Part shown: positions 16,191 through 36,876 of the stretch, in pieces
Position numbering within the stretch: the stretch's first letter is position 1
How the letters are laid out: each line of letters opens with the position of its first letter
Assembly (NCBI GenBank): GCA_038231135.1
Contig: JBBRLX010000013.1
Coordinates: 1-64,000 of the forward strand
Reading direction: 5' to 3'
DNA: 64,000 nucleotides
From: Candidatus Eiseniibacteriota bacterium
Lineage (GTDB): Bacteria > Eisenbacteria > RBG-16-71-46
Translations under genes and position numbers: made by a program
Notes under the pieces: generated by a model
Database searches by the model: none
Seen by the model: the letters and a program-made list of their open reading frames with translations, nothing else
What the model was told of the DNA's origin: nothing

Positions 16191-16224
16191 CCAACTCCCT
16201 TCGCGCTCGCGCGCCTGCTGCGTG

Positions 16225-16626
16225 TCATTCGTCGTCATCGGGCCAGCGATCGATGCCATAGAGTCCCGCCTTCATGGTCTTGAGCGCGAGCAGCGCACAC
16301 TTGAGCCGCACCGGACCGAGCTCGATGCCGAGCATCTCGAGCACGTCGCCGCTGCCGAGCCGCTTCGCCTCGTCCAGCTTCATGCCTTCGATGCGCTCGG
16401 TCAGCATCGAGGCCGCCGCCTGGCTGATCGAGCAGCCGTGGCCGTTGAACCGCGATTCGACGATCACGTCGTCCCGCACGCGGAACTCCATGCGCAGCCG
16501 GTCACCGCACAGCGGATTCGAATCCTCGAACGCGAAGTCCGGCTGGTCGAGCGTGCCGTGATTCCGCGGGTGCTTGTAGTGCTCGAGGATCGTCTCGCGG
16601 AACAGCTCGTCGAATTCGCCCATCAT
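16225..16626 (-). CDS. sufU: SufU/IscU-type scaffold
   Basis: ILEHYKHPRN, NPLCGD, GCSIS, RLKCA. Confidence 0.92.
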   Translation of the reverse strand: MMGEFDELFRETILEHYKHPRNHGTLDQPDFAFEDSNPLCGDRLRMEFRVRDDVIVESRFNGHGCSISQAAASMLTERIEGMKLDEAKRLGSGDVLEMLGIELGPVRLKCALLALKTMKAGLYGIDRWPDDDE

Positions 16627-17882
16627 CCGAACACCTTGCGGGCACGGTGCAGCCCGCGCACGAGCGCATCGATGTCATCGGTCGTGGTGTAGCAGTGGAA
16701 CGACGCGCGCGCCGTCGCCGGCACCCCGAACCTCACGTGCAGCGGCATCGCGCAGTGATGGCCGGCGCGCACCGCGATGCCGTCTGCGTCGAGCACCGTG
16801 GCGATGTCGTGCGGGTGCAGGTCGCCGAGCGTGAACGCGATCGCGGCGCCGCGGCGATCGGCGCCCGGGCCCAGCACGCGCAGCTCCGGCACCTCGAGCA
16901 GCCGCGGCAGCGCATAGTCGACGAGTTCTCGATCGTGGGCCCACACCGCGTCCATGCCGACGCCTTCCAGCCAGTCCACCGCCGCGCCGAGTCCCACGGC
17001 CTCGGTGATCGCCATGGTGCCGGCCTCGAACTTCCATGGGACGTCGTTCCAGGTCGAGCCTTGGAGCGTCACCTCGCGGATCATCTCGCCGCCACCGAGG
17101 AACGGCGGCATGGATTCGAGCAGCGCCCGGCGCGCCCACAGCACGCCGATGCCGGTGGGCCCCAGCATCTTGTGACCGGTGAACGCCACGAAGTCCGCGC
17201 CCAGCGCGCGCACGTCGACCGGCAGATGCGGGACGCTCTGCGACGCGTCGACGAGCGCGAGCGCGCCGGCGTCGTGGGCCATGCGCGCCAGCTCCGCCAC
17301 CGGGTTCACGGTGCCGAGCACGTTCGAGATGTGCACGACGCTCACCAGATTCACGCGGCCGCGGGCCAGCTCGGTCGCTGCGCCCTCGAGGTCGAGCTCG
17401 CCCGCGTCCGTCACCGGGATGAACCGCAGTTCCACGCCGCGCTCGGCGGCGAGGATGTGCCACGGCACCAGGTTCGCGTGGTGCTCCATCCCGGTGAGCA
17501 GGATGGCGTCGCCGGCCACGAGATTCGCGCGCGCCCACGAGTAGGCGACGAGATTGATCGACTCGGTCGCGTTGCGCGTGAACACCACCTCGGCGGGTGA
17601 CGGGGCGCCGATGAAATTCGCGACGCGGCGGCGCGCGTCCTCGTAGGCGGCGGTCGCCTGTTCGGCGATCCGGTACACGCCTCGGTGGATGTTCGCGTTG
17701 CAGGTGCGGTAGTGGCGGTCCATCGCCTCGAGCACCGCGTCCGGCTTCTGCGACGTCGCGGCGCTGTCGAGGTAGACCAGCGGGCGGTCCCGGTCACGCA
17801 GGATCGGGAACTGCTGCCGCAGCGCGTGCGCGTCGAGCGCACCGCGCACCTGTGCCGGCGCTGGATCCCGCGCGAGCGTCAC
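16623..17882 (-). CDS. sufS: Cysteine desulfurase SufS
   Basis: YLDSAATSQKP, TGHKM and RAGHHCA (class II). Confidence 0.95.
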   Translation of the reverse strand: MTLARDPAPAQVRGALDAHALRQQFPILRDRDRPLVYLDSAATSQKPDAVLEAMDRHYRTCNANIHRGVYRIAEQATAAYEDARRRVANFIGAPSPAEVVFTRNATESINLVAYSWARANLVAGDAILLTGMEHHANLVPWHILAAERGVELRFIPVTDAGELDLEGAATELARGRVNLVSVVHISNVLGTVNPVAELARMAHDAGALALVDASQSVPHLPVDVRALGADFVAFTGHKMLGPTGIGVLWARRALLESMPPFLGGGEMIREVTLQGSTWNDVPWKFEAGTMAITEAVGLGAAVDWLEGVGMDAVWAHDRELVDYALPRLLEVPELRVLGPGADRRGAAIAFTLGDLHPHDIATVLDADGIAVRAGHHCAMPLHVRFGVPATARASFHCYTTTDDIDALVRGLHRARKVFG

Positions 17883-17925
17883 GTTCGCCTCCCCGTCCGG
17901 CCGGCCGCGGGCGTCGCGCCCAGCC

Positions 17926-19275
17926 TCAACCGATCTTCCGCTCGATCTCGCGGCGCAGGGCCTCGCGCACGCGATCGAGTGGAATGCGGTCGAGCACCGG
18001 AGCGAAGAACCCCTCGACGATCAGCCGCTGCGCCTCGAGCCGCGGCAGGCCCCGCGCCATGAGGTAGTACATCTGCTCGTCGTCGACGTGCCCGATCGTC
18101 GCGCCGTGCGTGCAGCGCACGTCGTTCGCGAGGATCTCGAGGCCGGGGATGCTGTCGGCGCGAGCCTGGTCCGACAGCAGCAGGTTGCGGTTCGCCTGGT
18201 AGGCGTCGGTGCGCTGGGCGCCCTCGCTCACCTGGATCAGCCCCTGGTACACGCTGCGCGCGCGGTCCTTGAGGCAGCTCTTGATGAGCAGGTCGCTCGT
18301 CGTGTGATCGACCAGGTGCCGCTGCAGCGTATGCACGTGGAAGTGCTGGCGTGAGTCGCCGAACATGAACCCGTGCACGAATGCCTGCGCGCCCGGGCCG
18401 GCGAGATCGAAGTACGCATTCGCCTTCGCCATCCGGCTGCCGAGCACCGTCTGCACCCACTGCAGCTCGGCCCCGCGGCCGATCCGGGCGCGGTGGTTCG
18501 AGTACTCGTAGACGTTGCGGTCCCAATCCTGAAGCGTCGCGAACACCAGCCGGGAGTCGTCGCCGACGAACACCTCGGTGCCGCCCAGGTGGCTCGTGAT
18601 GCCGTTGCCGCTCTGGGACAACTGCTCGTCGATCACGGTGGCCTGGGCGTTCCTGCCCAGCACCACGACCGACCGCGTCGCCGCGATCACGCCGGGCGCG
18701 TCGAGCCACTGCACGAACCGGATCGGCAGCGCCGCCTGGACGCCGTCCGGCACGTGAACGAACACGCCGCCCGCGTGCAGCGCGGATCCGATCGCGGTCC
18801 ACCGGTCGTAGGCGCCGTCGATCAGCGAGCCGTAGTGAGCCTGCAGCAGGCTGCCATGGTGCGCGAACGCGTGCTCGAGCGAACACACCGTGACGCCCTG
18901 GCGGGCCAGCTCCTCGGGCACGCTCTCGAATACGACGTCGCGGTTGTGCTGGACGACGATCGCGGCGGCGCCGGCGTCCTCGGCCAGACGGTCGCGAACC
19001 GCCTCCGGCAGATCGCCGAGCGAGCGAGCCGGTGCGCCGGACACGAACGGTTCGAGACTGCCGATCGCCGCCTCGAGCGTGCGGAAGTCGGTGCGACGCC
19101 ACAGCTCGTCCTCGCGGCCGGGGAACGGCAGCACGACCGCCGCCGCGGCGGCGATGCGGCGCTGCTCCGCGGCCCACTCGGGCTCGCCGGCGGCGCGTGC
19201 CCGCGCGGCGGCACGTGTGAACCAGGCATCGAAATCGAGAGCCGGTGGCGGCGCCATCTGAACGGGCATCGTCAT
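17926..19275 (-). CDS. sufD: Fe-S cluster assembly protein SufD
   Basis: [25 protein letters not shown]. Confidence 0.95.
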
Positions 19276-20687
19276 CCGACCGAGCCCTCCATCTGGAGCT
19301 GGATCAGGCGGTTCATCTCGACCGCGTATTCCATCGGCAGCTCCTTCACGATCGGCTCGATGAAGCCCGACACGATCATCGCCGCGGCCTCCTCCTTGCC
19401 GATGCCACGGCTCTGCAGGTAGAAGATCTGCTCGTCGCCGATCTTGGACACCGTCGCCTCGTGCCCGATCGAGACCTGGTCCTCTTCGATCTCCATGTAG
19501 GGATACGTATCGGACCGCGATTCCGGATCGAGGATCAGCGCGTCGCAATTGACCGTGCTACGGCTGTTCACCGACCCCTTCGTGACCTTGACGAGCCCGC
19601 GATAGCCCGCGCGCCCACCGTCCTTGCTGATGGACTTCGAGATGATCTTGCTCGTGGTGTTCGGCGCCGCGTGCGTGATCTTGGCGCCCGCGTCCTGATG
19701 CTGATCCTTGCCCGCGAACGCGATCGACAGCACCTCGCCGTGGGCCCCCGGCTCCTTGAGGATGACGGCGGGGTATTTCATCGTGAGCTTGGATCCCAGA
19801 TTCCCGTCGACCCACTCCATGGTGGCGTCTCGATACGCGACGGCACGCTTCGTCACCAGGTTGTAGACGTTGTTCGACCAGTTCTGAATGGTCGTATAAC
19901 GGCACCGGCCGCCACGCTTCACGATGATTTCGACAACCGCGGAATGCAATGAATCACTCGAATATATCGGGGCGGTACAGCCTTCCACGTAATGCACGTA
20001 CGCGCCTTCGTCGACGATGATCAGCGTGCGCTCGAACTGGCCCATGTCGCGGGTGTTGATGCGGAAGTACGCCTGCAGCGGCACGTCGACCTTGACGCCC
20101 TTGGGCACGTAGATGAACGAGCCGCCCGACCACACCGCGGAATTGAGCGCCGCGAACTTGTTGTCGTTGAACGGAATCACGGTGCCGAAGTATTCGCGGA
20201 ACAGCGCCTCGTGCTCCTTGAGCCCGTGATCGCACGACAGGAAGATCACGCCCTGCTGCTCGAGGCTCTCCTTGATCTTGTGGTACACGACCTCGGAGTC
20301 GTACTGGGCGCCCACGCCCGACAGGAACTTCTGCTCCGCCTCGGGAATGCCGAGCTTGTCGAACGTGCGCTTCATGTCGGCGGGCACGTCGTCCCACGAC
20401 TTCACTTCGTCCGACGTCGGCTTGACGTAGTAGTAGATGTCCTGGAAATCGATGTGCGTGAGATCGCCACCCCAGGTGGGCAGCGGCTTCTTCCAGAACG
20501 TCTCGAGCGCCTTCAGCCGGTAGTCGAGCATCCACTGCGGCTCGCCCTTCATGGCCGAGATCTCGGCCACGATCGCGGGATCGAGGCCCTTACGGCTCTT
20601 GAACACGTGCTGCTCTTTGTCGTGGAACCCGAACTTCTCCGCGTATTCGCCGCGAAGGTCGAGCCCGGTGTTGTCGGTCGTGGTCAT
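19272..20687 (-). CDS. sufB: Fe-S cluster assembly protein SufB
   Basis: [29 protein letters not shown]. Confidence 0.97.
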
Positions 20688-21484
20688 CGTGCCTCCACTT
20701 CGTTCGCGACGCGGACCCAGTCGTAGCCCTTGCCTTCGAGCTCCAGCGCGAGGCCGGGGCCGCCGGACATCGCAATGCGGCCGTCGATCATGACGTGCAC
20801 GAACTGCGGCTTGATGTAGTTGAGGATGCGGTTGTAGTGCGTGATCACGAGCACGCCCAGCTCCGGACCCGCGAGCGTGTTCACGCCCTCCGACACGATC
20901 TTGAGCGCGTCGATGTCGAGTCCGGAATCGGTCTCGTCCATCACCGCGATCTGCGGCTTGAGCAGCGCCATCTGGAGGATCTCCGCGCGCTTCTTCTCGC
21001 CACCCGAGAAGCCGTCGTTCAGGTAGCGGGTCGCGAACGACTCGTCCATGCGGAGCTTCGCCATGCTGTCGCGCAGCAGCGCCCGGAATTCCTTGGGGTT
21101 GATCCCCTTGCGATGCGGCACCGTGCCGTTGCCCTCGTGGCCCGCCTGCAGCCGCGCGTTGAGCGCGGTGCGCAGGAAGTTCGCGACGGTGACGCCCGGG
21201 ATCGCGACCGGATACTGGAACGCCATGAACAGGCCGCGGCGCGAGCGCTCGTCGGGCTCGAGTCCGAGCACGCTGTCACCCTGGAACAGGATGTCGCCGC
21301 CGGTCACCTCGTAGCGCGGATGCCCCATGAGCGTGTTCGCGAACGTGCTCTTGCCCGAGCCGTTCGGCCCCATCAGCGCATGGATCTGGCCCTTGCTCAC
21401 TTCGAGGGACAGCCCCTTGAGGATTTCCTTGCCCTCCACGGCCACATGGAGGTCCCTGACGATCAGATCCGGCGTCGTGCTCAT
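20684..21484 (-). CDS. sufC: Fe-S assembly ATPase SufC
   Basis: [28 protein letters not shown]. Confidence 0.97.
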
Positions 21485-21581
21485 TCAGATTCCTCGATTC
21501 CGCGATTCGCGGTCGGTTGCGTGTCGATCGGCACCGCGCTCGCGGTGTTCATGCGCCGGGGGCTCCGGCGCGGCAGTTGCA

Positions 21582-21944
21582 TCAGGCGGAGAAGCTCTCT
21601 CCGCAGGCACAGTTGTGACGCACGTTCGGGTTGTTGAACTTGAAGCCCGAGCCCATGAGGCCCGTCACGAAGTCGATCTCGGTGCCCGCGAGCAGCGTCA
21701 TGCTCTTCACGTCCACCACCAGCTTGACGCCATTGCTGTCGACGATCTGATCGCCCTCGGCGCCGCCGTCACAGAACTCCATGAAGTACGAATTGCCGGA
21801 GCAGCCGCCGCCGCGCACCCCGATGCGGAGAGCCTGTTCGGGGGTTCCGCGCTGCGTGAGCAGCTCTTTTACCTTGTCCGCCGCGGCCAGCGACATCGTG
21901 ACGCCGGTCCGGATGGGATTCTGATTCATGATCGGAAGAGTCAT
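21582..21944 (-). CDS. sufA: A-type Fe-S carrier (IscA/SufA/HesB)
   Basis: GGGCSG...NPN...CACGESF. Confidence 0.93.
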   Translation of the reverse strand: MTLPIMNQNPIRTGVTMSLAAADKVKELLTQRGTPEQALRIGVRGGGCSGNSYFMEFCDGGAEGDQIVDSNGVKLVVDVKSMTLLAGTEIDFVTGLMGSGFKFNNPNVRHNCACGESFSA

Positions 21945-21963
21945 GGCGCTCGTGGGTCCTCGT

Positions 21964-22518
21964 CTATGGGTCGGTTCGGGTGTGAATGTCTTCGATGCGA
22001 ATCATCGCCCGCGCGGCCGGGCGTTGCGGCGACGACGTGAGACCGGCGACCAGCGCCGGCTCCTGATCCACGCCGTGATCGAATGAACAATGGACGCAGC
22101 CCAGGACGTCGTCCGGGGAGTCGCAGCGACGGCACGTTTCGAGCCACGCCAGCCCCTCGCCCAGCTCGCGCTCAAGCTGCTGATATTTTCGAATCGACTC
22201 GCGCGTGTCCCCGAGCTTGCGCTCGAACAACGCGCGCAAATCGTTCATCGCCTCGGTGCCGATGCCGGATCCCCACCACGCCTGCAGCAGCTCACGCATG
22301 TCCTGCAGCGAGAACCCCAGCGTGTGGAGCAGGTCGATCCAGCGCACCCGGTCGGCCGCCGCGGGCTCGTACAGCCGGAACCCGCCGCTCGACCGGGTCG
22401 CCGGCTGCAGCAGACCCAGCTCCTCGTAGAGATGGATCGCCCGGACCGTCTTACCGGTCTGGCGGGCCAGGTCTCCGATGCGCAGCAACTGAGGATGTTG
22501 GATCACCGGCGCTCCCAT
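21964..22518 (-). CDS. MerR-family regulator with C-terminal CxxC-x8-CxxC
   Basis: RIGDLARQTGKTVRAIHLYEELGLL...GFRLY; tail CRRCDSPDDVLGCVHC. Confidence 0.9.
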   Translation of the reverse strand: MGAPVIQHPQLLRIGDLARQTGKTVRAIHLYEELGLLQPATRSSGGFRLYEPAAADRVRWIDLLHTLGFSLQDMRELLQAWWGSGIGTEAMNDLRALFERKLGDTRESIRKYQQLERELGEGLAWLETCRRCDSPDDVLGCVHCSFDHGVDQEPALVAGLTSSPQRPAARAMIRIEDIHTRTDP

Positions 22519-22525
22519 CGAGGCC

Positions 22526-22585
22526 AACCCTTACGTACACGTTAGATTCACACTGGAACGTACCGCGCCACGGTGAGTTCGTCAA
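22526..22585 (-). promoter_or_regulatory. Sigma70-like promoter of the merR-suf operon plus downstream dyad
   Basis: TTGACG (22585-22580), 17 nt, TACGTT (22562-22557); imperfect dyad CCTTACGTACACGTTAG at ~22529-22545. Confidence 0.55.
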
Positions 22586-23131: not shown

Positions 23132-23641
23132 ATGCATGACTCGAGGAACAGGTGGCTCACCGCGCTGCTCGCGATCGCGATCGCGACTCCGGTCGCGTCC
23201 GCCGCGCGCGCGGACGTGCAGGTCAACCTCACGGCGCAGCGCGTCGTCCACGACACCCAGGGCCACGACGTGCTGGTGGCCGGCGATCAGGCCCGTCCGG
23301 GCGAGTTGCTCGAATACCGCGCGGTGTATCGCAACACCGGCTCGCGGAACGTGCAGAAGTTGATGGCGACGCTGCCCATTCCGCAGGGCATGGAATACGT
23401 CCCGAGCACGGCCGCGCCCGCCCTGGTGCTGGCGAGCACCGACGGCCGGAAGTTCGAGCCGGTTCCGTTGCAGCGCAAGGTCCGGCTCACCGACGGGCGT
23501 GAGGTCATGCGCGACGTGCCGGCCGGCGAATACCGCTGGCTGCGCTGGCCGATCGGCACGCTGCCCGGTCGCGGCGAGCGCCTGGTGCAGGCGCGCGTGC
23601 GGGTGTCCTCGCTGGTCGCCGTCTCGAATTCACGCCACTGA
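23132..23641 (+). CDS. Secreted single DUF11-like protein lacking the isopeptide Lys/Asp (putative chaperone)
   Basis: GGAGGA RBS; signal peptide ending ARA; ARPGELLEYRAVYRNTG...LPIPQGMEYVP...VQARVRV. Confidence 0.8.
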   Translation: MHDSRNRWLTALLAIAIATPVASAARADVQVNLTAQRVVHDTQGHDVLVAGDQARPGELLEYRAVYRNTGSRNVQKLMATLPIPQGMEYVPSTAAPALVLASTDGRKFEPVPLQRKVRLTDGREVMRDVPAGEYRWLRWPIGTLPGRGERLVQARVRVSSLVAVSNSRH

Positions 23642-23769: not shown

Positions 23770-26379
23770 ATGATCGGTGTTCATCCTGTTCCCGGCCGCC
23801 GCACGTCGCGCATCCTGTGCGCGGCGCTGCTCGGCGGCTCCCTGCTGCTCGCGACACTCGCGGGCGTCCGCTCCGCCATCGCGGCCCCGGCCGCCGGCAC
23901 GCCGATCGGCAACCAGGCCTCGGCGTCCTACCTCGACGCTTCGTCCACGAGTCGCACGGCGACGTCCAATCTCGTGACCACGATCGTGCAGCAGGTCGCG
24001 AGCTTCACGCTGAACGCCAACGGCAACCGCATCGCGGCGCCGGGCGGCCAGGTGGTGTTCCCGCACTCCCTCACCAACACCGGCAACGGCACGGATACGT
24101 TCCCGCTGTCGCTGACGAATCTCGGCGGCGACAACTTCGACCTCACCGGGCTCACGATCTACCCGGACGCGAACGGCGACGGCGTGCCCGACAACTACAC
24201 CGCGATCAACACGACCGGGCCCCTCGTGGCCGGCGACGTGTTCCAGTTCGTGGTCGTGGGCAACGTGCCCGGCACGCAGATCGGCGGTGACATCTCGCGC
24301 GTGCGCGTGAACGCCGCGAGCGCGTTCGATGGCGCTCAGACCTCGACGAACACCGACGTCACCACGGTGTCCGGCAACGCGGTGATCAGCGTCACCAAGT
24401 CGATCAGCCAGCCCGCCGGCAACTCGCCCAGCGGTCCCTATACCTACACGCTGTCCTACACGAACTCCGGCAACAACGCCGCCACGGCCCTCAAGCTGTC
24501 GGACGCGATTCCCGCCGGCATGACGTATGTCGCGGGCAGCGCGCGGTGGAGCGTGACCGGCGCCGCGGTGCTCACGGACGCGAGCAACGTGGACGCGCAG
24601 GGTGTCGTCCCGAACACCGTGGTCTACGACTTCGGCGTCACCGCGGGCGGGACCATGACCGCCACGATCAACACGGTGCCCGCCGGCGGGAACGCCACGC
24701 TGACGTTCAACGTCAACGTGAACGCGGGCCTCGGGCCGCAGACGATCAACAACAGCTCCACCTACTCGTACAACGATGGCGCAGGCAACGTGGGTCCGTT
24801 CACGACGAACCTGGCGCCGTTCGACATCAACCAGAGCGTGTCGCTCACGTTCACCGGCCAGACGATCGCGGCGGCGGTGCAGGGCGCGACGCTCACGTAC
24901 ACGAACACGGTCACGAACACCGGCAACGGTTCCGACCGGTTCGACATCACGTTCGGCACGAACACGTTCCCGGCCGGCACGAACATGACGCTGTACCAGA
25001 GCGACGGCGTCACGCCGCTCTCGGACTCGAACGGCAACGGCACGCCGGACACCGGTCCGCTCGCGGCCGGTGGCACGTACGCCATCGTGCTCAAGGCCAT
25101 GCTGCCGCCGTCGGCCACCGGCGGTCCCTACTCGGTGCAGAAGATCGCGACGTCGGTGTCGGATCCGTCGCGCACCGCCACGGCCACCGACGTGCTGACT
25201 ACGATCACGGCGAACGCGGTCGACGTCACGAACAACTCGGTCGGCGGTCCCGGCGTGGGCGCCGGCCCCGAAGCCTCCGCGGTCGTGACGCTGCCTATCC
25301 TGCCCGGCAACACCGGGCGGTTCACGCTGTTCGTCACGAACAACGCGACGCTCGCGGACAACTTCGACATGGCGGCGAGCACCGACCCGACGTTCGCGTC
25401 GGTCACGCTGCCCGCCGGCTGGGGTGTGACGTTCCGCAACGTGGTGAACGCGGTGATTACGAACTCGGGCAACGTCGGCGCCACGAACAGCGTGCAGGTG
25501 TTCGCCGACGTGACGGTGCCGGCGGGCTACGTGGCGGGCACGGTGGACCTGTACTTCCGCGCGCGCTCGCCCGTGTCGCTCGCCACCGACCGGCTCCACG
25601 ACGCCGTGAGCGTCACGGCGCAGCGCGGCCTGACGCTGGTGCCGAACGGCAACGGCCAGGTCACGCCGGGCGGCGTGACGACCTACACCCACATCCTGGC
25701 GAACACCGGCAACGTGGTGGAGGGCGCGGGCACCGGCAGCGTCGTCGCGCTCACGATGACGAATTCGCAGGGGGCGTGGGGATCGGCACTGTACGTCGAC
25801 TCCAACAACAACGGCTCGTTCGACGCGGGTGACGCGGCGATCTCCGATCTCGGCACGCTCGGCGGCATCGCGCCGGGGGCCAGCCTGCGACTGTTCGTGC
25901 GGGTGTTCTCGCCGGCCGGAGCCCCGATCGGCCAGACCGATCTCACCACGCTGACCGCGACGACCACGAACGGCACGTACATCACCTCGGTGCCGCCGGT
26001 GGTGCAGGCGACCGACCAGACCACGGTGCTGAACGGCCAGCTGTCGATCGTGAAGCAGCAGGTGCTCGACGCCAACTGCGACGGCGTTCCCGACGGCGCG
26101 TACGGCGGCGGCAACATCACGGCCGGCGCCAACCCCGGCGTGTGCCTGCGATATCAGATCGTGGTCACCAACGTCGGCACCGCGTCGGTGACGAACGTGG
26201 TGGTGGACGACGCCACTCCGGCCGGCACGAAGTATTCGAGCGCGGTCGCGGCGTCCGTCACGCAGGGGTCGATCGTGACCCCGGCGAACGGCGCGGCGGG
26301 ATCGGTGGTGGCCACCATCGGCACCATCGCCCCCAACCAGTCGGTGACGATCACGTTCGGCATCCGGATCGACCCGTAG
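23770..26379 (+). CDS. Secreted multi-Ig DUF11 protein (putative major filament subunit)
   Basis: Signal peptide; N-terminal GTPIGNQA segment; repeated TNTGNxxDxF Ig modules; one complete and one C-terminally truncated DUF11. Confidence 0.85.
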   Translation: MIGVHPVPGRRTSRILCAALLGGSLLLATLAGVRSAIAAPAAGTPIGNQASASYLDASSTSRTATSNLVTTIVQQVASFTLNANGNRIAAPGGQVVFPHSLTNTGNGTDTFPLSLTNLGGDNFDLTGLTIYPDANGDGVPDNYTAINTTGPLVAGDVFQFVVVGNVPGTQIGGDISRVRVNAASAFDGAQTSTNTDVTTVSGNAVISVTKSISQPAGNSPSGPYTYTLSYTNSGNNAATALKLSDAIPAGMTYVAGSARWSVTGAAVLTDASNVDAQGVVPNTVVYDFGVTAGGTMTATINTVPAGGNATLTFNVNVNAGLGPQTINNSSTYSYNDGAGNVGPFTTNLAPFDINQSVSLTFTGQTIAAAVQGATLTYTNTVTNTGNGSDRFDITFGTNTFPAGTNMTLYQSDGVTPLSDSNGNGTPDTGPLAAGGTYAIVLKAMLPPSATGGPYSVQKIATSVSDPSRTATATDVLTTITANAVDVTNNSVGGPGVGAGPEASAVVTLPILPGNTGRFTLFVTNNATLADNFDMAASTDPTFASVTLPAGWGVTFRNVVNAVITNSGNVGATNSVQVFADVTVPAGYVAGTVDLYFRARSPVSLATDRLHDAVSVTAQRGLTLVPNGNGQVTPGGVTTYTHILANTGNVVEGAGTGSVVALTMTNSQGAWGSALYVDSNNNGSFDAGDAAISDLGTLGGIAPGASLRLFVRVFSPAGAPIGQTDLTTLTATTTNGTYITSVPPVVQATDQTTVLNGQLSIVKQQVLDANCDGVPDGAYGGGNITAGANPGVCLRYQIVVTNVGTASVTNVVVDDATPAGTKYSSAVAASVTQGSIVTPANGAAGSVVATIGTIAPNQSVTITFGIRIDP

Positions 26380-26459: not shown

Positions 26460-29400
26460 ATGCAGATGATCGAAGCGCGTTCCGGGTGCCGGTTCCGTCT
26501 CCCCGCCTGGTTCGCGGTGGTGGCGGGCTTCGCCATGGGCGCTCTGAGTGAGGTCGCGGCGCCACCGGCGATTGCGGGCGCGCCGCCCGGCACGCCGATC
26601 GACAACGTGGCCTCCGGGACCGGCATCGACAGCGCGACGCTCGAGCCGATCGAGGTGCGATCGAACCTGGTGCGGGCGATCGTCGGCACGTCGCAGGCCA
26701 TCGTGCTCGACGGCAGCGACACTCGAACGGCGCCGCCCGGCGCGCACCTCACATTCGCCCATCACGTGGCCAACCTCGGCAACGTCGCGACCACGGTGCG
26801 ATTCAGCTGTGCGACGGGGGCCGGCAGCGACTTCACGCTCGCGAACCCGGCGCTGCTCGTGGACGTGAACGGCGACGGCATCGCCGGGCCCGGCGAACCC
26901 GTGCTCGCGAGCGGCGATTCGCTGACGCTCGGCCCCGGCGAGGCCGCCGAGCTCGTCGCGCAATGCGACGTGCCCGCGGCCGCGGCCGGTTCGAGTCGCG
27001 CCATGCTCGAGGTCGGCGCGTCGCCCACGTTCGGCGGCCCCGTCCTCACGGCCACGGACACCGTGCTCACGCCGCCGCCGCCCACGATCGCGTTCTACGG
27101 CGACGGTTCGTTCGCCGCGCCGATCCGGGTGTCGTCCGCCAACCGCCCGCTGTATCTGCAGGCGGTGGCGCCGGGCTGCGACCTGCGCCCCGGCGTGCGC
27201 GACACGCTGCAGCTCGCGATCCGCTCCGTCCTCACCGGCGACGTGCAGAACTTCCGCGCGATCGAGACCGCGGCCAACTCGGGCGTGTTCCGCGTGGAGC
27301 CGTACGTCGCCACCGCGCTGGTGGGCGCGCTCGCGACGACTTCGCCGGGAGTGCTCCAGGTGCGCCCCGACGACGAAGTCGTCGCCACGCTCGACGGCTG
27401 CGGCGGAACGCAGGTCGAGGCGCGGGTATTCATCGAGCCGCGCGGCGTGGTGTTCGACGCGGCGAACGGCTATCCGGTGGCGGGAGCGCGCGTGGCGCTG
27501 ATCGACGTCACCGGCGCCGCCAACGGCGGCGACGCCGGCGGCCCCGCGCGCGTGTTCCTGGCGGACGGCGTCACTCCCGCGCCCGCGGACGTGCTCACCG
27601 ACGCCTCGGGCCGCTACCACTTCGAATGGGTCGCCGCGAGCACGTATCGCGTCGACATCGCGGTCCCCACCGGCTTCGGGTTCCCGAGCGCGCTCGCGCC
27701 GGGTGCGGTCGCGCCCGGCTACGTGATCGACGCCGACGGCTCCTACGGCCGGCCCTTCACGATCGCCGCGGGCGGCGGTCCGGTGCGGTTCGACCTGCCG
27801 CTCGACGCGCTGGGCACCGCCACGATGTTCGTGGAGAAGTCCGCTGGCCGGCCGTTCGCGGAGCCGGGCGACGCCGTGGACTACACCGTGCGGATCGTGA
27901 ACGCCTCGACGCGCGCGATCACCGCGGCGCGACTGGACGACGCGCTGCCGCCGGGGTTCGCCTACGTGCCGGGCACGGCGCGCCTCGACACCCGCGCCCT
28001 CGCCGACCCCTCCCCCGGCGCGCGCGTGTCGTTCGCGCTCGGCACGCTCGCGCCGAACGCGACGGTCGAGTTGCGCTACCGCGCGCGGATCGGCGCCGGC
28101 GCGGCCCCCGGCGATGCGTGGAACCGCGCCGTCGCGTCGGGCGACGGCGCGTCGTCCAACGTCGCTGCGGCGAAGGTGACGGTGACGGGCGGGGTGTTCG
28201 CCGACGAGGCGGCGCTGCTGGGCACGGTGTACGTCGACCGGAACGGCGACCGCCGGCGCGGATCCGACGACCCCGGCATGCCGGGCGTGCGGCTGTATCT
28301 CGACGACGGCACGTTCGCGATCAGCGACGGCGCGGGCCAGTACAGCTTCTACGGCATCACGCCCCGCACGCACGCGCTGCAGGTCGATGCGACCACGCTG
28401 CCGCCGGGCGCCCGGCTGCTCGCCACGTCGCACCGCGACGCCGGCAGTCCCGGATCGCGCCTGGTGGCGCTTCAGCGCGGCGATCTGGTGCGCGCGGACT
28501 TCGCGCTCGCCGCGGATTCCGTCACGCGCGAGGCGCCGGCCGAACGGCGCCGGCTCATCGCAGGCGACGACGAGCTCGGCCGCGGGGTGCACCGGCCGCT
28601 CGACACCCACGACGATCCGGCGCTGCCCGGCGACCCGCGTTCGCGGCCGCCGGCGGGACTCGTGGACGAGGGCCGCCGCATGCCGCTGTTCGGCCCGGCC
28701 GCGCGCCAGCAGGGTGCGAACCTGCCGGGCGACGCCGCGCCCATCGTGGCGCCGGCGGCATCACCGGCGCCGCCGCCCACGGCACAGCAGCCGGATCCCA
28801 GGGAATCGACTTCGATCGGTGATGCCGGAGCACCGCCGCGCGGGATGGACGGCGGAGCGCAGGACATCGTCGAACGCTCGCTCGCCACCGACGTCGGCAC
28901 CGGATTCATCGGCCTCGCCGACGGCGACACGCTGGACGTGGATCAGATCACGGTGCGGGTGCGCGGGCGGCAGGATCACGCGCTCGAGCTGAGCGTGAAC
29001 CACGTGGCGATCCCCGCCACCCGGGTGGGACGCCGCGTGACGCTCGAGCGCCGCGGAGCCGAGGCGTGGGAATACGTGGGCGTGAACCTCGCGCCGGGCC
29101 CGAACCTGCTCGAGTTGACCGAGCGTGACGCCGGGGGCGCCGCGACCGGGCACGCCGCCATCACGGTGCTCGCGCCCGGGCACTTCGAGCGCATCGAGCT
29201 GCTGGCGCCGGCCACCGTCGCGGCCGACGGACACTCGGATGCCGTGGTGCGGTGCGCACGCTCGACGCGCATGGGGTGCCCGCGGCCTGCCGCTCGATCG
29301 TGACGCTCGAGACCACCCGCGGCCAGTGGCACACGACCGATCTCGATCCCGCGTCTCCGGGGCTGCAGATCGCCGTGGTGGGCGGCACCGCCGAGGCGCG

Positions 29401-31936
29401 GCTCACGGCGCCGTCCGAGCCCGGCACGGCGACGGTGCGCGCCACGGCCGGCGGCATTCACGGCGACGCGCCGCTCGAGTTCGTACCGGAGCTGCGGCCG
29501 CTGCTCGCGGTCGGCAGCGTGGAGGGCATGCTGGCGTGGAATCGTGCGCGGGGATTCGCGACCCGCGACCTCGCGCGCACGGGGTTCGAGCAGGCGTTCA
29601 CGAGTCTCGTCGCCGGGTCCGACGACGGCGGTCTCGGCGGCGGCGCGCGCGCAGCGCTGTTCCTCAAGGGACGGCTGAGCCGCGACGTGCTCGTCACGCT
29701 CGGCTACGATTCCGACCGGCCGGCGAATCTGCGCCGCCTGCGCGACATCCAGCCCGACGCGTTCTATCCCGTCTATGGCGACGCCTCGGTGCGCGGCTAC
29801 GAGGCGCAGTCGACGGGCCGGCTGTATGCGCGCCTCGATCGCCGCGGCGCGGCACTCGCCTACGGCGACTTCGTCGCGCAGGGCGCGAGCGGCGCGCAGA
29901 GCCTCACCCAGTACAGCCGCAGCCTCACCGGCGTCCAGCAGCACTGGGAGAGCTCGCGGCTGCGCGTCGACACGTTCGCCAGCCGGGCCCTGGCGGGCGA
30001 GCGCGTGGAGGAGTTCCCCGGCCGTGGCATCTCGGGACCCTACACGCTCGCGCGCGCGCCGATCGTCGAGAACAGCGAGCGCGTCGAGATCGTGGTGCGG
30101 GACCGCAACCAGCCGTCGGTGATCGTGACCGCCACCGCGCGCGAACGCTTCGCCGACTACGAGATCGAGCCGCTCACCGGCCGGATTCTGTTCAAGGAGC
30201 CGGTGCCGGCGTTCGACGCCGCGCTCGACCCGGTGTCGATCCGCGTGAGCTATTCCGTGGAAGGCGGCGGGGATCCGGTGTGGGTGTCGGGCATGGAGAC
30301 GCGGCTCAAGCTTGGCGGCGCGAGCGAGGTCGGCGCCACGCTCGTCGACGACCGCGACCCGCTCCATCCCTACCGGCTCGGCGGCGTATTCTTCGGCCAT
30401 CGCCTGGATGCGCGCTCGACGTTCGAGGCGGAGCTCGCCCACTCGGCGAACTCGGGCGCCGGTGGCAGCGCGGCGCGGTTCGAGCTGCGCCGCGACGGCG
30501 CCGATGGCGATGGCCGGCTGTTCGGATCGATCACCGACGGCGGCTTCGTCAATCCCCACGCCGGCTTCAGCCCCGGTCACGGCGAGGCCGGCCTGCGCTG
30601 GAACAAGCGGCTCGACGCGCGCACGCGCCTGCTCGCGGACGGCGTGTTCAGCTCCGACGCCGCGGCCGCCACGCGGCACGGCGGATTGCTGCTCGGCCTC
30701 GACCGCTCGTTCGGCGGCTCGGTGCACGGCGAGTTCGGCGCCCGCATCGCGGGCGAGCACGCCCGCCCCGGCCCCACCGATCCCACGAGCCTGTCGCTGC
30801 GATCCAAGCTGCTCGCCCAGCTGCCGTGGCATCCGGAGCTGAGCGCCTACGGCGAATACGAGCGCGACGTGCTCGGCACCGGGCGCGAGCTCGCAGCACT
30901 CGGCGCGGAGTACCGGTTGCGCGCGCACGGGCGCCTGTATGTGCGCCACGAGCTGGCGTCCACGCTGGGCAGCGCATTCGAGCTGTCGACGTCGCAACGC
31001 CGGCTGGCATCCGTGGCCGGGTTCGACGCGGACCTCGGTCCCTCGACGCACGTGTTCAGCGAATACCGGATCGCCGACGCGCTGCCCGCCCGCGAGGCCG
31101 AGGCGGCTCTCGGGCTGCGCAACACCTGGCAGCTCGATGGCGGGCTGCGCGTCACCGGCGCGTTCGAGCGCGTGCACCCGCTGCAGGGCGGCGACGGCAC
31201 GGGCCCGAGCACGGCGGTGAGCGGCGGCATCGAATCCACCGACGCGGACGACGTCAAGGCGTCGGCGCGCATGGAGCTGCGCACCTCGCGCGCCAGCGAC
31301 AACTGGCTGTCGAGCACCGCGGTCGCGGTGCGGCTCGACAGCTCGTGGTCCGCGCTTGGCCGCAATCTGGCCACGATCACCGACGAACGCGCCGCCGGCG
31401 TCACCACGCGCGAGCGCATGCAGCTCGGCCTGGCGTTCCGGCCCTCGGACGACGCGGCGTTCGACGCGCTCGGTCGCTACGAGCTGCACCTGGATCGCGA
31501 GCACCCCACGCCCGTCACCCGCAGCCGCCGCACGGCCCACGTACTGTCGGCCAATGTCACCGGGCAAATGTTCGACGTGGTGGACGTGTCGTTCGCGTAC
31601 GCGGCCAAGCGCGTGTTCGACCGGTCCGATGCCATCGGCTCGAGCGGGTCCGCGCAATGGGTGCACGGCCACTGGTCGCGCGAGTTCGGCGCGACCTGGG
31701 ATGCGGGACTCAACACCAGCGCGCTGTTCGCGGACGGCGGACGGCGCGACGGCCTCGGCGTCGAGCTGGGCCGCAGCCTCGCAAACGGCCTGTGGCTGTC
31801 GGCCGGCTGGAACCGGTTCGGGTATTCCGACCCCGATCTGCCCGACGAGACCTACACGCGCGCCGGCTTCTACATGCGCATGCGCGCCCGGCTCGCGCCG
31901 TCGCTGTTCGACCGGCTCACGCGGGGGACGCCGTGA
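26460..31936 (+). CDS. Large secreted DUF11/SdrD-B/Ig protein with C-terminal OM beta-barrel; split by a 1-nt frameshift at ~29251
   Basis: ORFs ending at 29303 and 31936 join as ...DAVVRVRTLDAHG... if one G is restored (~1825 aa). The last ~800 aa show amphipathic beta-strand patterning. Confidence 0.8.
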
Positions 31937-34900
31937 TGCGGCGGCTCGTTGCGGGGCTCCGCGTGGCCGCCACCGCCGCGGTGATCGCGGCGACGCTGTT
32001 CGCCGCGGGCACGGCCCGGGCGCAGATCGTGCGCTCGTTCACGCCGCGGTTCTCGACCAACGACCACGGCGACGTGACGCTGATCGGCAACACGCTGATG
32101 AGCTGCAGCGGCAACGGCAATGCCTGCAAACAGGGCCGTCTCGGCGCCGGCGGCAGCATCAACGACGACGACTTCGCGATGGCGTACGTCGACATCGACG
32201 CCGACGGCACCACGTTCTGCTCCAGCAACGCCACGTTGGCGCTGCCGGTGGGCGCCACGGTGCTGTGGGCGGGTCTCTACTGGCAGGGCGATTCCAACAA
32301 TGGCGCGCGCAACCAGGTGAAGTTCTCGACGCCGGTGGCGGCCTACACCGCGATGACCGCGACGCAGCTCGACGTGACCGGCACCGCGTATCAGGGGTTT
32401 ATCGACGTCACCGCGCGCGTGCAGGCGGGCGGCAACGGCGCCTATACGGTGGCGAACGTACAATCGACGACGGGCGCGACCTATTTCGCGGGCTGGGCGC
32501 TGGCCGTGGCCTACCGGCTCGCCAGCAATCCCTCGCGCAACCTGGTGGTCGAGGACGGTTACGCCCAGGTCGCGGCCGGCGCCACGGTGACGATCCCCGT
32601 GAGTGGGTTCCTGACGCCACCCGGCGGCATCGTGAACACGCGGCTCGGCGTGGTGACGGGCGAGGGCGACCTCGGCCTCACGGGAGACGCGTTCCAGATC
32701 AACGGCACGACGTTGTCCGACGCCGCGAATCCGGCGGACAACTTCTTCAACAGCTCGATCAGCCAGTTCGGCGTCAACGTCACCACCAAAAACCCCAACT
32801 ACGTGAACCAGCTCGGCTGGGACGTCGACATGGTGTCGGCGAACGGCGTGCTGCCGAACGGCGCGACGAGCGCCACGATCACGCTGACGTCCGCCAGCGA
32901 CCGCTACTACCCGTCGGTCGTGACGTTCGCGACCGATCTCTACCAGCCGGTGTACACCGGCAACGGGTTCTTCAAGTCGGTGGCCGATCTCAACGGAGGA
33001 TCGGTGCGGCCCGGCGACGTGCTGGAGTACACCGTTCGCATGAACAACTCCGGCGACGATGCCTCGACGAACACCGTCGTGCGCGACACGCTGCCCGCCA
33101 ACGTCACCTACGTCGCGGGCTCGCTGTCGGTGGTGAACGGCCCGAACACCGGCGCCAAGACCGACGCAATCGGCGACGACGTGATGGAGTACGACCCGGC
33201 CACGCGCATCGTCACCGCGCGACTCGGCACTGGCGCCACGGGCACGCTGGGCGGCCGCGTCGACCCGGACGTGCAGACCACCGTGAAGTTCCGCGCGGCG
33301 GTGAACCTGCCACTCGCGAACGGCAGCGTGGTGTCGAACCAGGCGCTCGCGAATTTCAACGCCGCCCAGCTCGGCACCGCGCTCAGCGCCGCGAGTGATG
33401 CGGACACGCTAACCGCGGGCAACCAGCGCACGAATGTGACGGTGGTGGCCCAGACGCTGAGCGGCACCGTGTTCGAGGACGTGAACTACGGCGGCGGCGC
33501 CGGGCGCACCAAGGCGGCGTCCGCCGGCGTGGCGCGGCCGGGCGCGCGCGTCGAGTTGTACGGTGCTGCCGGCCAATACCTCGCGGCCGACACCACCGAC
33601 GTCAATGGCCTGTACTCGTTCGACGGCATCGGCCCCGGCAGCCTCACCGTGCGGGTCGTGAGCTCCATGGTGACGTCGTCGCGGCCCGGCGCCGTCGCCG
33701 GACTGCTGCCGGTGCAGACGTTCCGCGTGGACGCCTCCAGCGGCGCCGCGGTGAACGACGCGGTCCGTGTCGGCGGCGAGGTGCCGTCCAAGGTCGACGC
33801 CGGCATGAACACGACGAACGCGACGCTGGCGTCGCTCACGACGGCCGGCGCGACCGCTCAGTCGATCGCGCCGGTCACCACGGGCACCGTCAACTTCACG
33901 GGCGTGGACTTCGGGTTCAACTTCGATGTCATCGTGAACGCCAACGACTCGGGCCAGGGCAGCCTGCGGCAGTTCCTGACCAACGCGAACGCGCTCCAGA
34001 ACACCGGCCTCGCGCAGTCCGGGCTCACCGGCGGCATCGAGACGTCGATCTTCATGGTCAGCGACGGCGCCGCCCACGCGGGATTGCGGACCGGGCTCGC
34101 GAGCCTGCTCACCGGCGGCGTTGTCGCGATCGCCCCCATCACGACGCTGCCCGCGATCACCGACCCGGCGCGGCTCGACGGCACCACGCAGACCACGAAC
34201 GTCGGCAACACCAACGCGGGCACGCTGAATTCCACGATCGCGGTGGGCGCCGACGGCCTCACGGTGACCGCACTCGCGCGGCCGGAGGTTGAGATCAAGG
34301 ACGGCGCCAGCCTGGCGCTCGGCGTCGACGTGCAGGCGTCGGGCGTCACGCTCACCGGGCTCGCGATCTATGGCTTCGGCAACACACCGGCGAACGACGC
34401 CCACGCCAACGTGCGCATCGGTGCGACCGCGGGCACGGCGGTGATCGACGGGTGCGCGATCGGCGTGAGCGCCTCGAGCTTCGCCGACCCCGGCGCCGCG
34501 GCGCGCAGCGGTGGCGACGCGGTGCGTGTGATCGGCGGCGACGACGGCATCCTGCGCAACAGCATCGTGGCCTACGCGGCGGGCAACGGCGTCGCGCTGG
34601 CGACGAACTCCGATCGCTGGACTCTCACCGGCAACGAGATCCGCGGCAACGCCATCGGCAATGCGTCGCGCGACGCGGTGTCGCTCGAGGCGAGCGCGAG
34701 CGACGTGGTGCGCGGCAACCGCATCGCGGACACCGAGGGCTGCGGCATCGACGCTCGCACCAGCACCGGGTCCGGCACGTTCGAGAACAACACGATCTCG
34801 CGCAGCGGCCTCGGCGCCGCCGGCACGCCCGAGACGCCCGGGGTGCGGCTCGGGGGTACGGCGAACCGCGTCGACCGCAACGTGCTGTTCGACAACTACG

Positions 34901-36876
34901 GCGCGGGCGTGCTGGTGATGTCGAGCTCCTCGGCGAACACCATCACCAAGAACTCGATGTACAACAACGGCGGCATCACGAACAACGCCGCCGCCGCCGC
35001 GACCGGACAGCTCGGCATCGATCTCGAGTCGGCCACGGACGACGTGAACCGCGGCACCGCGCCCTATGTGACGCTGGACGATCTCGCCGACGCGGACGCG
35101 GGCGGCAACGGGCTCTTGAACTTCCCGGTGCTCGAGAGCGCCGTGCTCGCGGGCGGCAACCTGACGCTCACCGGCTGGGCGCGACCCGGGTCCGTGATCG
35201 AATTGTTCGTGTCGGATTCCGATCCGTCCGGATTCGGCGAGGGCAAGACCTGGCTGACGACACTCACCGAAGGCTCGGTGTCGGACCTCGACGCGTCGTC
35301 GAGCACGTTCTCCGGCACGATCAACGGACTCGTCCAGGGCACCGACAACACGAACCGGTTCCGGTTCACGTTTGCGGCCCCGGGGGGCGTCGCGGGCGGC
35401 GTGCGGCTCACGGCGACCGCCACGCTGTCGCAGGCGACATCCGAGTTCTCGGGACAGGTCACCGTCGCGGGCGGCGTGAGTGTGGCGGGCTATGGCTATC
35501 TGGATGTGAATCACAGTCTCAATCGCGACGCGGCGGAGGCCGGCACCGGCGCCACGCTCTACGCGAAGCTCGTCGCGTCCTCGACCCCGGGCAGCGCCCA
35601 GGCGGTCGTGGCGATCGACGCCGTGACCGGCGCGTATGCGTTCTCCTACGTGACCGCCGGTACCTACACGATCGTGCTCGACGACAACAACGCCGCGAGC
35701 GACGTCGCTCCCGCCTATCCCGTGGGCATGATCGGCACCGAGGTTTCGAACGGGGCGCGCCCGCTCACGGTCGCCAACGCGAACCTGGCGGACCAGGACT
35801 TCGGCATGTGGCGCGGCAGCCGGGCCGACGGCATCGTGTTCCGCGACGACGGCGCGGGCGGCGGCACCGCCAACGACGGCGTGAACCAGGCCGGCGAGGG
35901 CGCCGTGGGCGGCGTGCGCGTCGCGCTCGCGAACGCGGCGTGCGCAGGCGGCCGCTGCGACAGCACGCTCACCGACGGCGCGGGTGCCTTCACGCTGTGG
36001 ATCCCGAACGGCGCCGTGGGCACCAGCACGCAGGCGCTCGAGACGAATCCCTCGGGCTGGGTGTCCACCGGCGGCGGCGCCGGGACGACCGGTGGCGCCT
36101 ACTCGCGCAACTCCGACATGGTCACGTTCACCCCGGCAGGCGGCGTGGCGTATTCCGGGCTCCGGTTCGGGGACGTCCCGCCCAACACGTTCGCGCCGAA
36201 CGGCAACCGCAGCGGCACACCGGGCGCCGCGGTGTTCCACCCGCATACCTTCATCGCCGGCAGCGGCGGCAGCGTGAGCTTCACGGCCGTCGAATCGCCG
36301 TCGCCCGCGATTCCCGGCTGGACGGCGGAGCTGTACCGCGACCTGAACTGCAACGGCAGCGTGGATGCCGGCGACAACCCCGTGACGGCACCCGTGGTCG
36401 TGACCGCGGGTCAGACGCTATGCCTCGTGCTCAAGCACTTCATCCCCGGCGGCGCGCCCGCCGGCGCCAGCGAGCAGGTGACACTCGGCGCCAGCATGAG
36501 CTACACGAACGCGTCCCCCGCGCTCGTCACGGTCGTGTCGCTGGGCGACCGCACGACGGTGATCTCCGCCGGCAGTCTCGAGATCGTGAAGACCGTGGAC
36601 CTCGCGAGTGCCAGGCCTGGCGACGTGCTCACCTACACGATCACCTACCGCAACCTGGGGCCCGCGCCGCTATCGGCGATCCTGCTGCAGGACGCCACTC
36701 CCGCCTACACCGTGTTCCAGAGCGCGAGCTGCGGCGCCGCCGGCAACGGCATCACCGCCTGCAACGTGACCGCGCAACCGGCGGTGAACGCGTCCGGCCC
36801 GGTGCGCTGGACGCTGACCGGCGCACTCACGCCCGGGGGAGCGGGGGCGGTGACGTTCCAGGTGAAGGTGCAGTAG
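31936..36876 (+). CDS. Large secreted adhesin (head domain, DUF11, SdrD-B-like, parallel beta-helix, truncated C-terminal DUF11)
   Basis: TGATG overlap; signal peptide ending ARA; SGTVFEDVN and GIVFRDDG SdrD-B-like starts; GNxI/NxI beta-helix rungs; 1646 aa. Confidence 0.85.
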   Translation: MRRLVAGLRVAATAAVIAATLFAAGTARAQIVRSFTPRFSTNDHGDVTLIGNTLMSCSGNGNACKQGRLGAGGSINDDDFAMAYVDIDADGTTFCSSNATLALPVGATVLWAGLYWQGDSNNGARNQVKFSTPVAAYTAMTATQLDVTGTAYQGFIDVTARVQAGGNGAYTVANVQSTTGATYFAGWALAVAYRLASNPSRNLVVEDGYAQVAAGATVTIPVSGFLTPPGGIVNTRLGVVTGEGDLGLTGDAFQINGTTLSDAANPADNFFNSSISQFGVNVTTKNPNYVNQLGWDVDMVSANGVLPNGATSATITLTSASDRYYPSVVTFATDLYQPVYTGNGFFKSVADLNGGSVRPGDVLEYTVRMNNSGDDASTNTVVRDTLPANVTYVAGSLSVVNGPNTGAKTDAIGDDVMEYDPATRIVTARLGTGATGTLGGRVDPDVQTTVKFRAAVNLPLANGSVVSNQALANFNAAQLGTALSAASDADTLTAGNQRTNVTVVAQTLSGTVFEDVNYGGGAGRTKAASAGVARPGARVELYGAAGQYLAADTTDVNGLYSFDGIGPGSLTVRVVSSMVTSSRPGAVAGLLPVQTFRVDASSGAAVNDAVRVGGEVPSKVDAGMNTTNATLASLTTAGATAQSIAPVTTGTVNFTGVDFGFNFDVIVNANDSGQGSLRQFLTNANALQNTGLAQSGLTGGIETSIFMVSDGAAHAGLRTGLASLLTGGVVAIAPITTLPAITDPARLDGTTQTTNVGNTNAGTLNSTIAVGADGLTVTALARPEVEIKDGASLALGVDVQASGVTLTGLAIYGFGNTPANDAHANVRIGATAGTAVIDGCAIGVSASSFADPGAAARSGGDAVRVIGGDDGILRNSIVAYAAGNGVALATNSDRWTLTGNEIRGNAIGNASRDAVSLEASASDVVRGNRIADTEGCGIDARTSTGSGTFENNTISRSGLGAAGTPETPGVRLGGTANRVDRNVLFDNYGAGVLVMSSSSANTITKNSMYNNGGITNNAAAAATGQLGIDLESATDDVNRGTAPYVTLDDLADADAGGNGLLNFPVLESAVLAGGNLTLTGWARPGSVIELFVSDSDPSGFGEGKTWLTTLTEGSVSDLDASSSTFSGTINGLVQGTDNTNRFRFTFAAPGGVAGGVRLTATATLSQATSEFSGQVTVAGGVSVAGYGYLDVNHSLNRDAAEAGTGATLYAKLVASSTPGSAQAVVAIDAVTGAYAFSYVTAGTYTIVLDDNNAASDVAPAYPVGMIGTEVSNGARPLTVANANLADQDFGMWRGSRADGIVFRDDGAGGGTANDGVNQAGEGAVGGVRVALANAACAGGRCDSTLTDGAGAFTLWIPNGAVGTSTQALETNPSGWVSTGGGAGTTGGAYSRNSDMVTFTPAGGVAYSGLRFGDVPPNTFAPNGNRSGTPGAAVFHPHTFIAGSGGSVSFTAVESPSPAIPGWTAELYRDLNCNGSVDAGDNPVTAPVVVTAGQTLCLVLKHFIPGGAPAGASEQVTLGASMSYTNASPALVTVVSLGDRTTVISAGSLEIVKTVDLASARPGDVLTYTITYRNLGPAPLSAILLQDATPAYTVFQSASCGAAGNGITACNVTAQPAVNASGPVRWTLTGALTPGGAGAVTFQVKVQ

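Follow-up and report, generated by a model that had tools for sequence, protein, structure and literature searches.

The 64,000-nucleotide stretch analysed here (the window) comprises positions 1 to 64,000 of contig JBBRLX010000013.1 of a Candidatus Eiseniibacteriota bacterium (assembly GCA_038231135.1). It carries a cluster of four co-oriented genes, A-B-C-D, and the third of these, gene C, is the subject of this work. Gene C combines a predicted outer-membrane beta-barrel of 38 strands with an N-terminal donor hairpin like that of the pilin encoded by gene B, and it has no acceptor of its own. Our confidence is a little better than even that C is a pore which exports a tip-first fibre of D and B subunits, its own donor completing the last subunit and so serving as covalent anchor. 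For the barrel, the orphan donor hairpin and the lack of an acceptor, support comes from the predicted fold, from fold searches and from statistics on the family. The roles of export pore and anchor have indirect support, by analogy, from fused and two-gene relatives, and the most economical view of the donor is that it caps the last pilin, as a terminator.

The interval of gene C holds two overlapping open reading frames (ORFs), 26460–29303 and 29252–31936, which belong to one gene, interrupted at 29250 by a gap of one base. In a protein search, 120 of 120 full-length homologues match both frames in order, and the frame of the codon signal (GC content at third codon positions, GC3) changes at ~29220–29280. 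Contigs of run X1 (depth about 30), probably the source, are identical to the window and have the gap at 29250; those of run X2, from a different sample in that study, carry a single additional G after 29250, the sole difference seen over most of 20.1–40 kb. From the homologues and the two sets of contigs, gene C is therefore a single frame of 1,825 codons, broken in the population or in the assembly, and the original prediction, which had repaired the frameshift to give a protein of ~1825 residues, was right on this point. A programmed frameshift, or two real genes, is ruled out by the homologues that span both frames and by the intact X2 allele. The gap reflects either a one-base null allele, in which case one population may have lost the fibre naturally, or an error in the consensus of one run. 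The closest named relatives, by protein search and profile scan, are Candidatus Eisenbacteria.

The evidence that DUF11 domains are split between chains comes from the points at which the proteins stop. A profile of complete DUF11 repeats has 124 positions, with the Asn near 99. On the last domains of B and D its coverage ends at 88–89, where the proteins themselves end, and on the internal DUF11 domain of C it reaches 115. Pfam DUF11 matches agree, spanning positions 14–84 of 114 in the C-terminal domain of B (13–88 of 124 on the repeat profile) and 4–106 of 114 in the internal domain of C. The hairpin absent from the acceptors of B and D is found right behind the signal peptides of B and C. 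This arrangement is general: 53 of 56 B homologues end as an open acceptor, with the Asp in all 53 and the Lys motif in 42, as do 30 of 31 D homologues, with both residues in 30/30. Since D has an acceptor only, B a donor and an acceptor, and C a donor only, the parts, as read from their sequences, can join in one order alone, D-(B)n-C, from N to C.

The donor hairpin of C lies outside its first immunoglobulin-like (Ig) domain, fold matches to which begin at residue 38–42. For a test across the family, a profile was made from B donors only, and matches of at least 8 bits within the first 160 residues were counted in 206 C homologues (at least 1,500 residues, Met start, from a set of 263 proteins). 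The profile matches the N-termini of 177 of them, compared with 0/206 barrel windows and 1/206 shuffled sequences, and the donor Asn stands at the aligned position in 164 of 176. This test replaced the invariance of the Asn in alignment A6, which was rejected as circular, the rows having been chosen by the motif. The N-terminal donor and its Asn, first proposed from the letters of the window, are thus borne out both by the hairpin in the model and by a profile derived from pilins.

A genome scan with the single gene C sequence gave no match, and a scan by profile gave 496 confirmed loci; neighbourhoods were scored in the best 80 of these. Genes A and B precede C in all 53 of these loci whose upstream DNA is long enough, and 33 of 48 have a D-like gene behind C. 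The hosts include Eisenbacteria, Betaproteobacteria, Desulfuromonadales, Verrucomicrobia, Gemmatimonadota, Acidobacteria, Nitrospiraceae and Balneolaceae, among others, and the barrel region of C matched 2,577 clusters at 50% identity. In the present cluster, the start of D overlaps the stop of C (TGATG). The D-x-x-P motif that contains the Asp occurs in only 2 of 55 homologues of gene A, which might tentatively be regarded as a candidate reversible donor cap or chaperone. The operon is also carried by plasmid p4 of Acinetobacter haemolyticus (CP085288.1, 7113–20620, locus L082), near arsenic-resistance genes and transposases; there, a separate OmpA-family gene lies between C and D, the tip domain is different and the pilin gene is in fragments. 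Locus L089 (genome G007, 6329–16144) has a variant order, with a short pilin on each side of gene A, followed by C.

In the model of the N-terminal half of C (predicted local distance difference test score, pLDDT, 86), the domains behind the hairpin are all complete. No open acceptor was found in C: every domain of this model has its full strand set, and an acceptor end is seen in 0 of 177 donor-type homologues. The internal DUF11 domain superposes on the whole of the CLIPPER structure 9IFR (Z 14.3, 2.6 Å, 121 of 123 residues), a CnaA-like fold, and the strict Lys-Asp-Asn triad is kept in 89 of the 177 donor-type homologues. The same domain is also matched by PDB 7WRK, the hypothetical protein TTHA1873 of Thermus thermophilus (Z 12.9, 2.4 Å). 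Pfam and the 9IFR superposition uphold the Ig, carboxypeptidase-regulatory-like, complete DUF11 and SdrD-B-like modules named in the original prediction, which was also correct in placing a Pro/Ala linker here (disordered, pLDDT under 50) and in finding no open acceptor. It missed the two Ig domains that lie behind the linker and ahead of the barrel, as well as a domain of ~90 residues within the barrel. The SdrD-B-like domain and its helix are likely the boundary between exported and periplasmic parts, and the two Ig domains, IgP1 and an invasin-D3-like domain, are likely periplasmic. IgP1 is present in 177/177 donor forms and in 0/11 single-chain forms, and it might conceivably dock subunits.

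The barrel was modelled by AlphaFold2 with 83 sequences (pLDDT 78). Leaving out the N-terminal Ig and an inserted domain, we count 38 strands in model residues 85–881. The gaps after even strands are 2–7 residues long and each gap of at least 8 residues comes after an odd strand, as expected if periplasmic turns alternate with outer loops. Of 16 long homologues scanned, chosen for length or C-terminal extensions, 5 have OmpA-family domains behind the barrel. The C-terminus of the barrel is therefore placed in the periplasm and, the strand number being even, so is the start of strand 1. The prediction is of a single closed barrel with both ends periplasmic. By the standard barrel formula, with the shear assumed, a ring of 38 strands has a diameter of 68–69 Å, compared with 43–45 Å for 24 strands. 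The inserted domain, found in 207/207 fused family members, is an outer-face loop by strand parity. There is strong coevolutionary coupling between R181 of loop 2 and E615 of strand 24, on opposite sides of the barrel, which suggests that loop 2 crosses the lumen; the pore is predicted to be partly filled by this loop and the inserted domain. Two distant relatives (loci L085 and L096, genomes G050 and G099) have a longer barrel middle than C and possibly more than 38 strands.

Fold searches place the model among membrane barrels, with no close structural match. All 50 matches listed in a wide search are membrane barrels (Z 9.8–16, root-mean-square deviation (rmsd) 6–20 Å), and among these many cover model residues 82–881, several being aligned there from their own first strand to their last; SprA gives the longest alignment listed (519 residues, Z 13.5, rmsd 13.3). 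Foldseek gave poor overall matches, with template modelling (TM) scores of at most 0.25 (MtrB, LptD, FimD, SlpA) and of 0.21–0.24 for FimD. FapF is not among the 50 matches listed in either fold search, a listing that does not exclude a likeness to it. No meaningful match came from searching PDB sequences with the pilin, an Acinetobacter D homologue, the barrel or the profile of the barrel. The hydrophobic/amphipathic alternation of the barrel strands could not be separated from that of soluble Ig strands and, because these controls score alike, it is not evidence for a membrane barrel. The original prediction of ~800 C-terminal residues of amphipathic strands forming an outer-membrane barrel stands on the model and fold searches, then, and not on alternation, and its description of C as usher-sized holds for chain length but not for the 38 strands of the model.

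Two smaller barrels, or a porin-like envelope tether whose Ig arm and partners stay in the periplasm, seem to us very improbable. Multi-barrel proteins exist (PMC13721041; this and the other papers cited are drawn on for the part of their text that was available), but the even-to-odd gaps of the model, all of 2–7 residues, leave no inter-barrel linker, and closed barrels align with model residues 82–881 from first to last strand. The N-terminus of ordinary barrels is indeed periplasmic and the OmpA fusions connect the family to the cell wall; against a tether, 20–40 Ig repeats with variable tip domains are too long for the periplasm.

The relatives of C show what the barrel is combined with elsewhere. 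A paralogue in the same genome (a stand-alone gene, 4,845 residues, G000:C11:54869–69457, minus strand, locus L081, downstream of his genes) has in one chain a tip domain, 27 Pfam DUF11 matches, an SdrD-B-like domain and the same barrel (36% identity), and no donor. The Lys, Asp and Asn are present in 26/26 extracted repeats, and its gap of 36 residues from SdrD to barrel is the shortest seen. Ten single-chain database proteins and the paralogue have 6–28 in-chain repeats and no donor; one, P0225, starts with the tip region of D (46% over 487 residues, E 5e-101), followed by 21–23 DUF11 repeats and the barrel. The single-chain forms spell out the order D-stalk-C in one chain. A donor and a long in-chain stalk are nearly exclusive, at least four repeats being found in 1 of 177 donor forms. 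Two further proteins, P0224 and P0250, have more DUF11 repeats behind the barrel, then a membrane helix and MAP3K-TRAF-binding/TPR-S sensor domains, which suggests a trans-envelope signalling form.

In a two-gene form, a stand-alone barrel of ~900 residues directly precedes a separate giant DUF11 gene in 7/7 loci fetched, of about nine such matches (L083/L091 in G134, L086/L090 in G056, L084 and L092–L095). Their homology to C begins at residue 191 and extends through the last strand (HHalign probability 99.7). The complete giant ORFs have about 3,700 and 5,800 codons, and both readable stalk C-termini run DUF11, SdrD-B-like, OmpA, OmpA. Neither donor nor gene A scored in the two-gene loci, apart from one weak cross-match inside a stalk. 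A separate chain with a periplasmic tail needs a passage, most simply through the stand-alone barrel.

This pairing of stand-alone barrels with separate stalks also bears on whether C is an anchor only, with a barrel that displays and holds the arm of C in autotransporter fashion, B and D being exported through a type II secretin or a SprA-type translocon and assembling by themselves on that arm. Such a division of labour is quite unlikely in our estimate. Oligomers of BsaA use a type IV pilus-associated route (PMC11580942, available text), the present genome has a SprA homologue and two secretins, and the single-chain relatives need no other cargo. The operon is nevertheless compact and alike across phyla, including Proteobacteria, which are not known to have type IX secretion. 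A 38-strand pore also far exceeds the need of an autotransporter, whose barrel has 12 strands.

Tens of Ig domains exceed the periplasm and both relative forms hold the chain by its C-terminus, so that passage there must be tip-first; by these relatives, it would most simply be tip-first in the operon form too. We propose that D and B are exported by Sec and would be linked at the base, in the periplasm, as the donor hairpin of one subunit completes the acceptor of another, with an intermolecular isopeptide bond formed by the acceptor Lys and Asp and the donor Asn. D would enter the barrel first, B subunits would be added at the base and the chain would be threaded outward. The donor of C, the sole donor with no acceptor behind it, would cap the last subunit, end growth and tie the fibre to the pore, the arm of C coming last, held by the chain that joins it to strand 1. 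Gene A might perhaps hold donors back reversibly. Of the original proposal, that C exports subunits and its donor caps the last pilin and tethers the fibre, export and anchoring are thus indirectly supported by the relatives; the terminator is not separated from a primer.

As a primer, the arm of C would come out first and its donor would nucleate the fibre, with subunits leaving through the pore and adding distally until D caps the tip. This calls on the same inventory of donors and acceptors in the opposite time order and avoids the problem of early termination, and a ring of 68–69 Å could possibly hold a resident chain and a passing subunit together. We consider it unlikely, given that the lumen is apparently occupied by loop 2 and the inserted domain, as the R181–E615 coupling indicates, that distal growth requires diffusion outside the cell, and that the fused and two-gene relatives could be displayed only tip-first from the periplasm.

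Several observations weigh against tip-first export ended by the donor of C. This donor would sit beside the pore from the start, so that early termination needs a mechanism to prevent it, and extrusion has no evident source of energy. Further routes of export exist in the genome, namely the two secretins and the SprA homologue, an SprA_N-positive ORF of 2,103 codons related to the type IX translocon (G000:C5:35406–41717, plus strand). Of the 48 loci scored, 15 yielded no D-like gene. The donor of C in the window is diverged: against the pilin profile it reaches 11.9 bits, with E 0.37 genome-wide. The barrel model has a predicted TM score of 0.67, and the coevolution support for closure of strand 1 on strand 38 is weak (1.28 against 0.67 ± 0.27), a score equalled by an unrelated pair. 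Finally, 11 of the 12 single-chain barrels fall into one clade of a barrel tree (101 rows, thinned from 266); contrasts between single-chain and donor forms, that in IgP1 included, are for this reason essentially one or two events.

Among known systems, chaperone-usher pili share with the operon donor-strand complementation, an acceptor-only tip, a barrel with a plug-like insert and nearby Ig domains, and probably also growth at a periplasmic base. There, the FimD barrel is built of 24 strands and FimI acts as terminator and anchor (PMC12122975, available text); gene C has 38 predicted strands, its donor, like that of B, is a two-strand hairpin with a bond-forming Asn, and the putative terminator is part of the pore protein. 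The inserted beta domain is comparable in position to the usher plug. The Usher family (PF00577) has no match in gene C or the genome, nor does gene C have a PDB sequence match; an usher was not found in this 93%-complete genome, and genes A–D have no Pfam or NCBIfam match to a PapD-like chaperone. SprA/Sov is likewise a giant single-chain barrel and passes folded domains; it has 36 strands and a width of about 7 nm, and was termed the largest identified in 2020 (PMC7463736, available text), with a chain of more than 2,100 residues against about 800 for the barrel of C. The SprA_N family (PF14349) has no match in gene C, the likeness of the plug-like domain to SprA is not significant (E 4.3), and no motor or PorV-type partners were seen in the operon.

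FapF is a trimer of 12-stranded barrels, unlike the 38 strands of the model. Type Va autotransporters have an N-terminal passenger and a C-terminal barrel, a layout seen in the paralogue and P0225; C itself carries an Ig arm and has no Pfam match to the autotransporter barrel family. The two-gene relatives, with a barrel gene beside a giant cargo gene, resemble type Vb two-partner secretion, but C and two stand-alone barrels have no Pfam match to the Omp85 family with POTRA domains. The Omp85-family barrel has 16 strands (PMC13721041).

The chemistry has closer parallels. In the CLIPPER domains of DUF11 adhesins, a Lys–Asn bond is catalysed by an Asp, some domains lacking the triad (PMC12617251, available text); the fold (9IFR) and triad are those of the internal domain of C, but the bond there is within one domain and in B, D and C the domain is split between chains. 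In the 'exchange and lock' of Clostridium perfringens BsaA, the donor Asn is bonded between chains to the acceptor Lys, the acid catalyst lying in the acceptor (PMC11580942). The predicted layout here is the same, with Asn on the donor and Lys and acid on the acceptor of the other chain, in a DUF11/CLIPPER fold rather than a TasA-type one. An archaeal thread is reportedly a fibre of the same 'exchange and lock' kind and is set beside BsaA; the hosts of these are monoderm or archaeal, with no outer-membrane pore. The present genome is taken as diderm because Omp85 genes are present elsewhere in it, outside the operon.

Three 38-stranded barrels are predicted in Deinococcus radiodurans, with no function given in the available text (PMC9388160). 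They were compared with C by strand number only, which is equal, and may bear on the novelty of the barrel; D. radiodurans also has DUF11 matches. Tafi are predicted donor-strand fibres of archaea with a terminator/anchor subunit (PMC11821415, available text), and Litorilinea has single-chain DUF11 hooks in a cell without the barrel-assembly machinery (BAM) (10.1101/2025.08.19.671072, available text). The A–D system is thus chaperone-usher in logic, BsaA in chemistry and type V in gene layout, its barrel agreeing with none of those that define such systems. No description of the operon or barrel family was found in a literature search outside which most subscription papers lay.

Coordinates of the operon and its parts are collected in Table 1. 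Divergent from it, at window positions 15430–22527 on the minus strand, are genes of Suf-type Fe-S cluster assembly and a MerR-family regulator (Pfam), the suf gene names being our reading of the translations. For the operon no sigma-70-like promoter was found, and terminator-like sites are no commoner than chance.

Table 1 Features of the A-B-C-D cluster (window coordinates)
Feature	Position	Strand	Basis or occurrence
Gene A, secreted DUF11-like domain of ~140 residues, ending as acceptors do, without catalytic Asp	23132..23641	+	TIGR01451 match; DUF11 look-alikes in Atlas
Gene B, pilin: signal peptide, N-terminal donor hairpin, Ig/DUF11 domains, C-terminal open DUF11 acceptor	23770..26379	+	
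Gene B residues	donor Asn codon 23911; acceptor Lys 26053, Asp 26209	+	
Gene C, predicted outer-membrane barrel protein, 1,825 codons	26460..31936	+	Homologues, GC3, X1/X2 contigs
C: donor beta-hairpin with isopeptide Asn (codon AAC at 26604)	26574..26687	+	N-half model; pilin-derived donor profile
C: three Ig-like spacers (NEW3-like, second Ig, carboxypeptidase-regulatory-like), variable among homologues	26697..27812	+	
C: complete DUF11/CLIPPER domain (Lys 27837, Asp 27939, Asn 28122)	27819..28187	+	In 207/207 family members scored
C: SdrD-B-like domain and helix behind	28206..28589	+	In 207/207 family members scored
C: disordered Pro/Ala linker	28590..28856	+	pLDDT under 50, residues 667–761
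C: IgP1 and invasin-D3-like domain (spans break)	28857..29485	+	
C: outer-membrane beta-barrel, 38 strands predicted	29498..31894	+	AlphaFold2 model, fold searches
C: conserved ~90-residue beta domain between strands 7 and 8, plug-like	29993..30265	+	Model; kept in stand-alone barrels
Gene D, putative tip adhesin: N-terminal tip domain, beta-helix, C-terminal open DUF11 acceptor, no donor	31936..36876	+	
Gene D acceptor residues	Lys 36589, Asp 36691	+	

On balance, we lean towards a distinct and widespread outer-membrane secretion system in which a 38-strand barrel threads folded Ig chains tip-first. It would take three forms: one giant chain; a barrel with a separate wall-anchored stalk; and an operon splicing subunits by self-forming isopeptide bonds, in which the pore protein would be the last covalent link. 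The predicted barrel would be wider than any solved single-chain barrel in the available text of the papers cited, and no characterised member of its family, about 2,600 clusters at 50% identity, was found. If this is right, it would add a route of protein export and fibre assembly for diderms. Gram-negative cells would have a covalent pilus made without sortase, and C would be the first pore to serve as terminator and anchor as well. The three arrangements of genes would then link giant single-chain adhesins directly, in evolution, to polymerised pili, the 38-strand barrel would probe how large a BAM-assembled protein can be, and the pairs of split DUF11 parts would be natural catcher/tag ligation parts.

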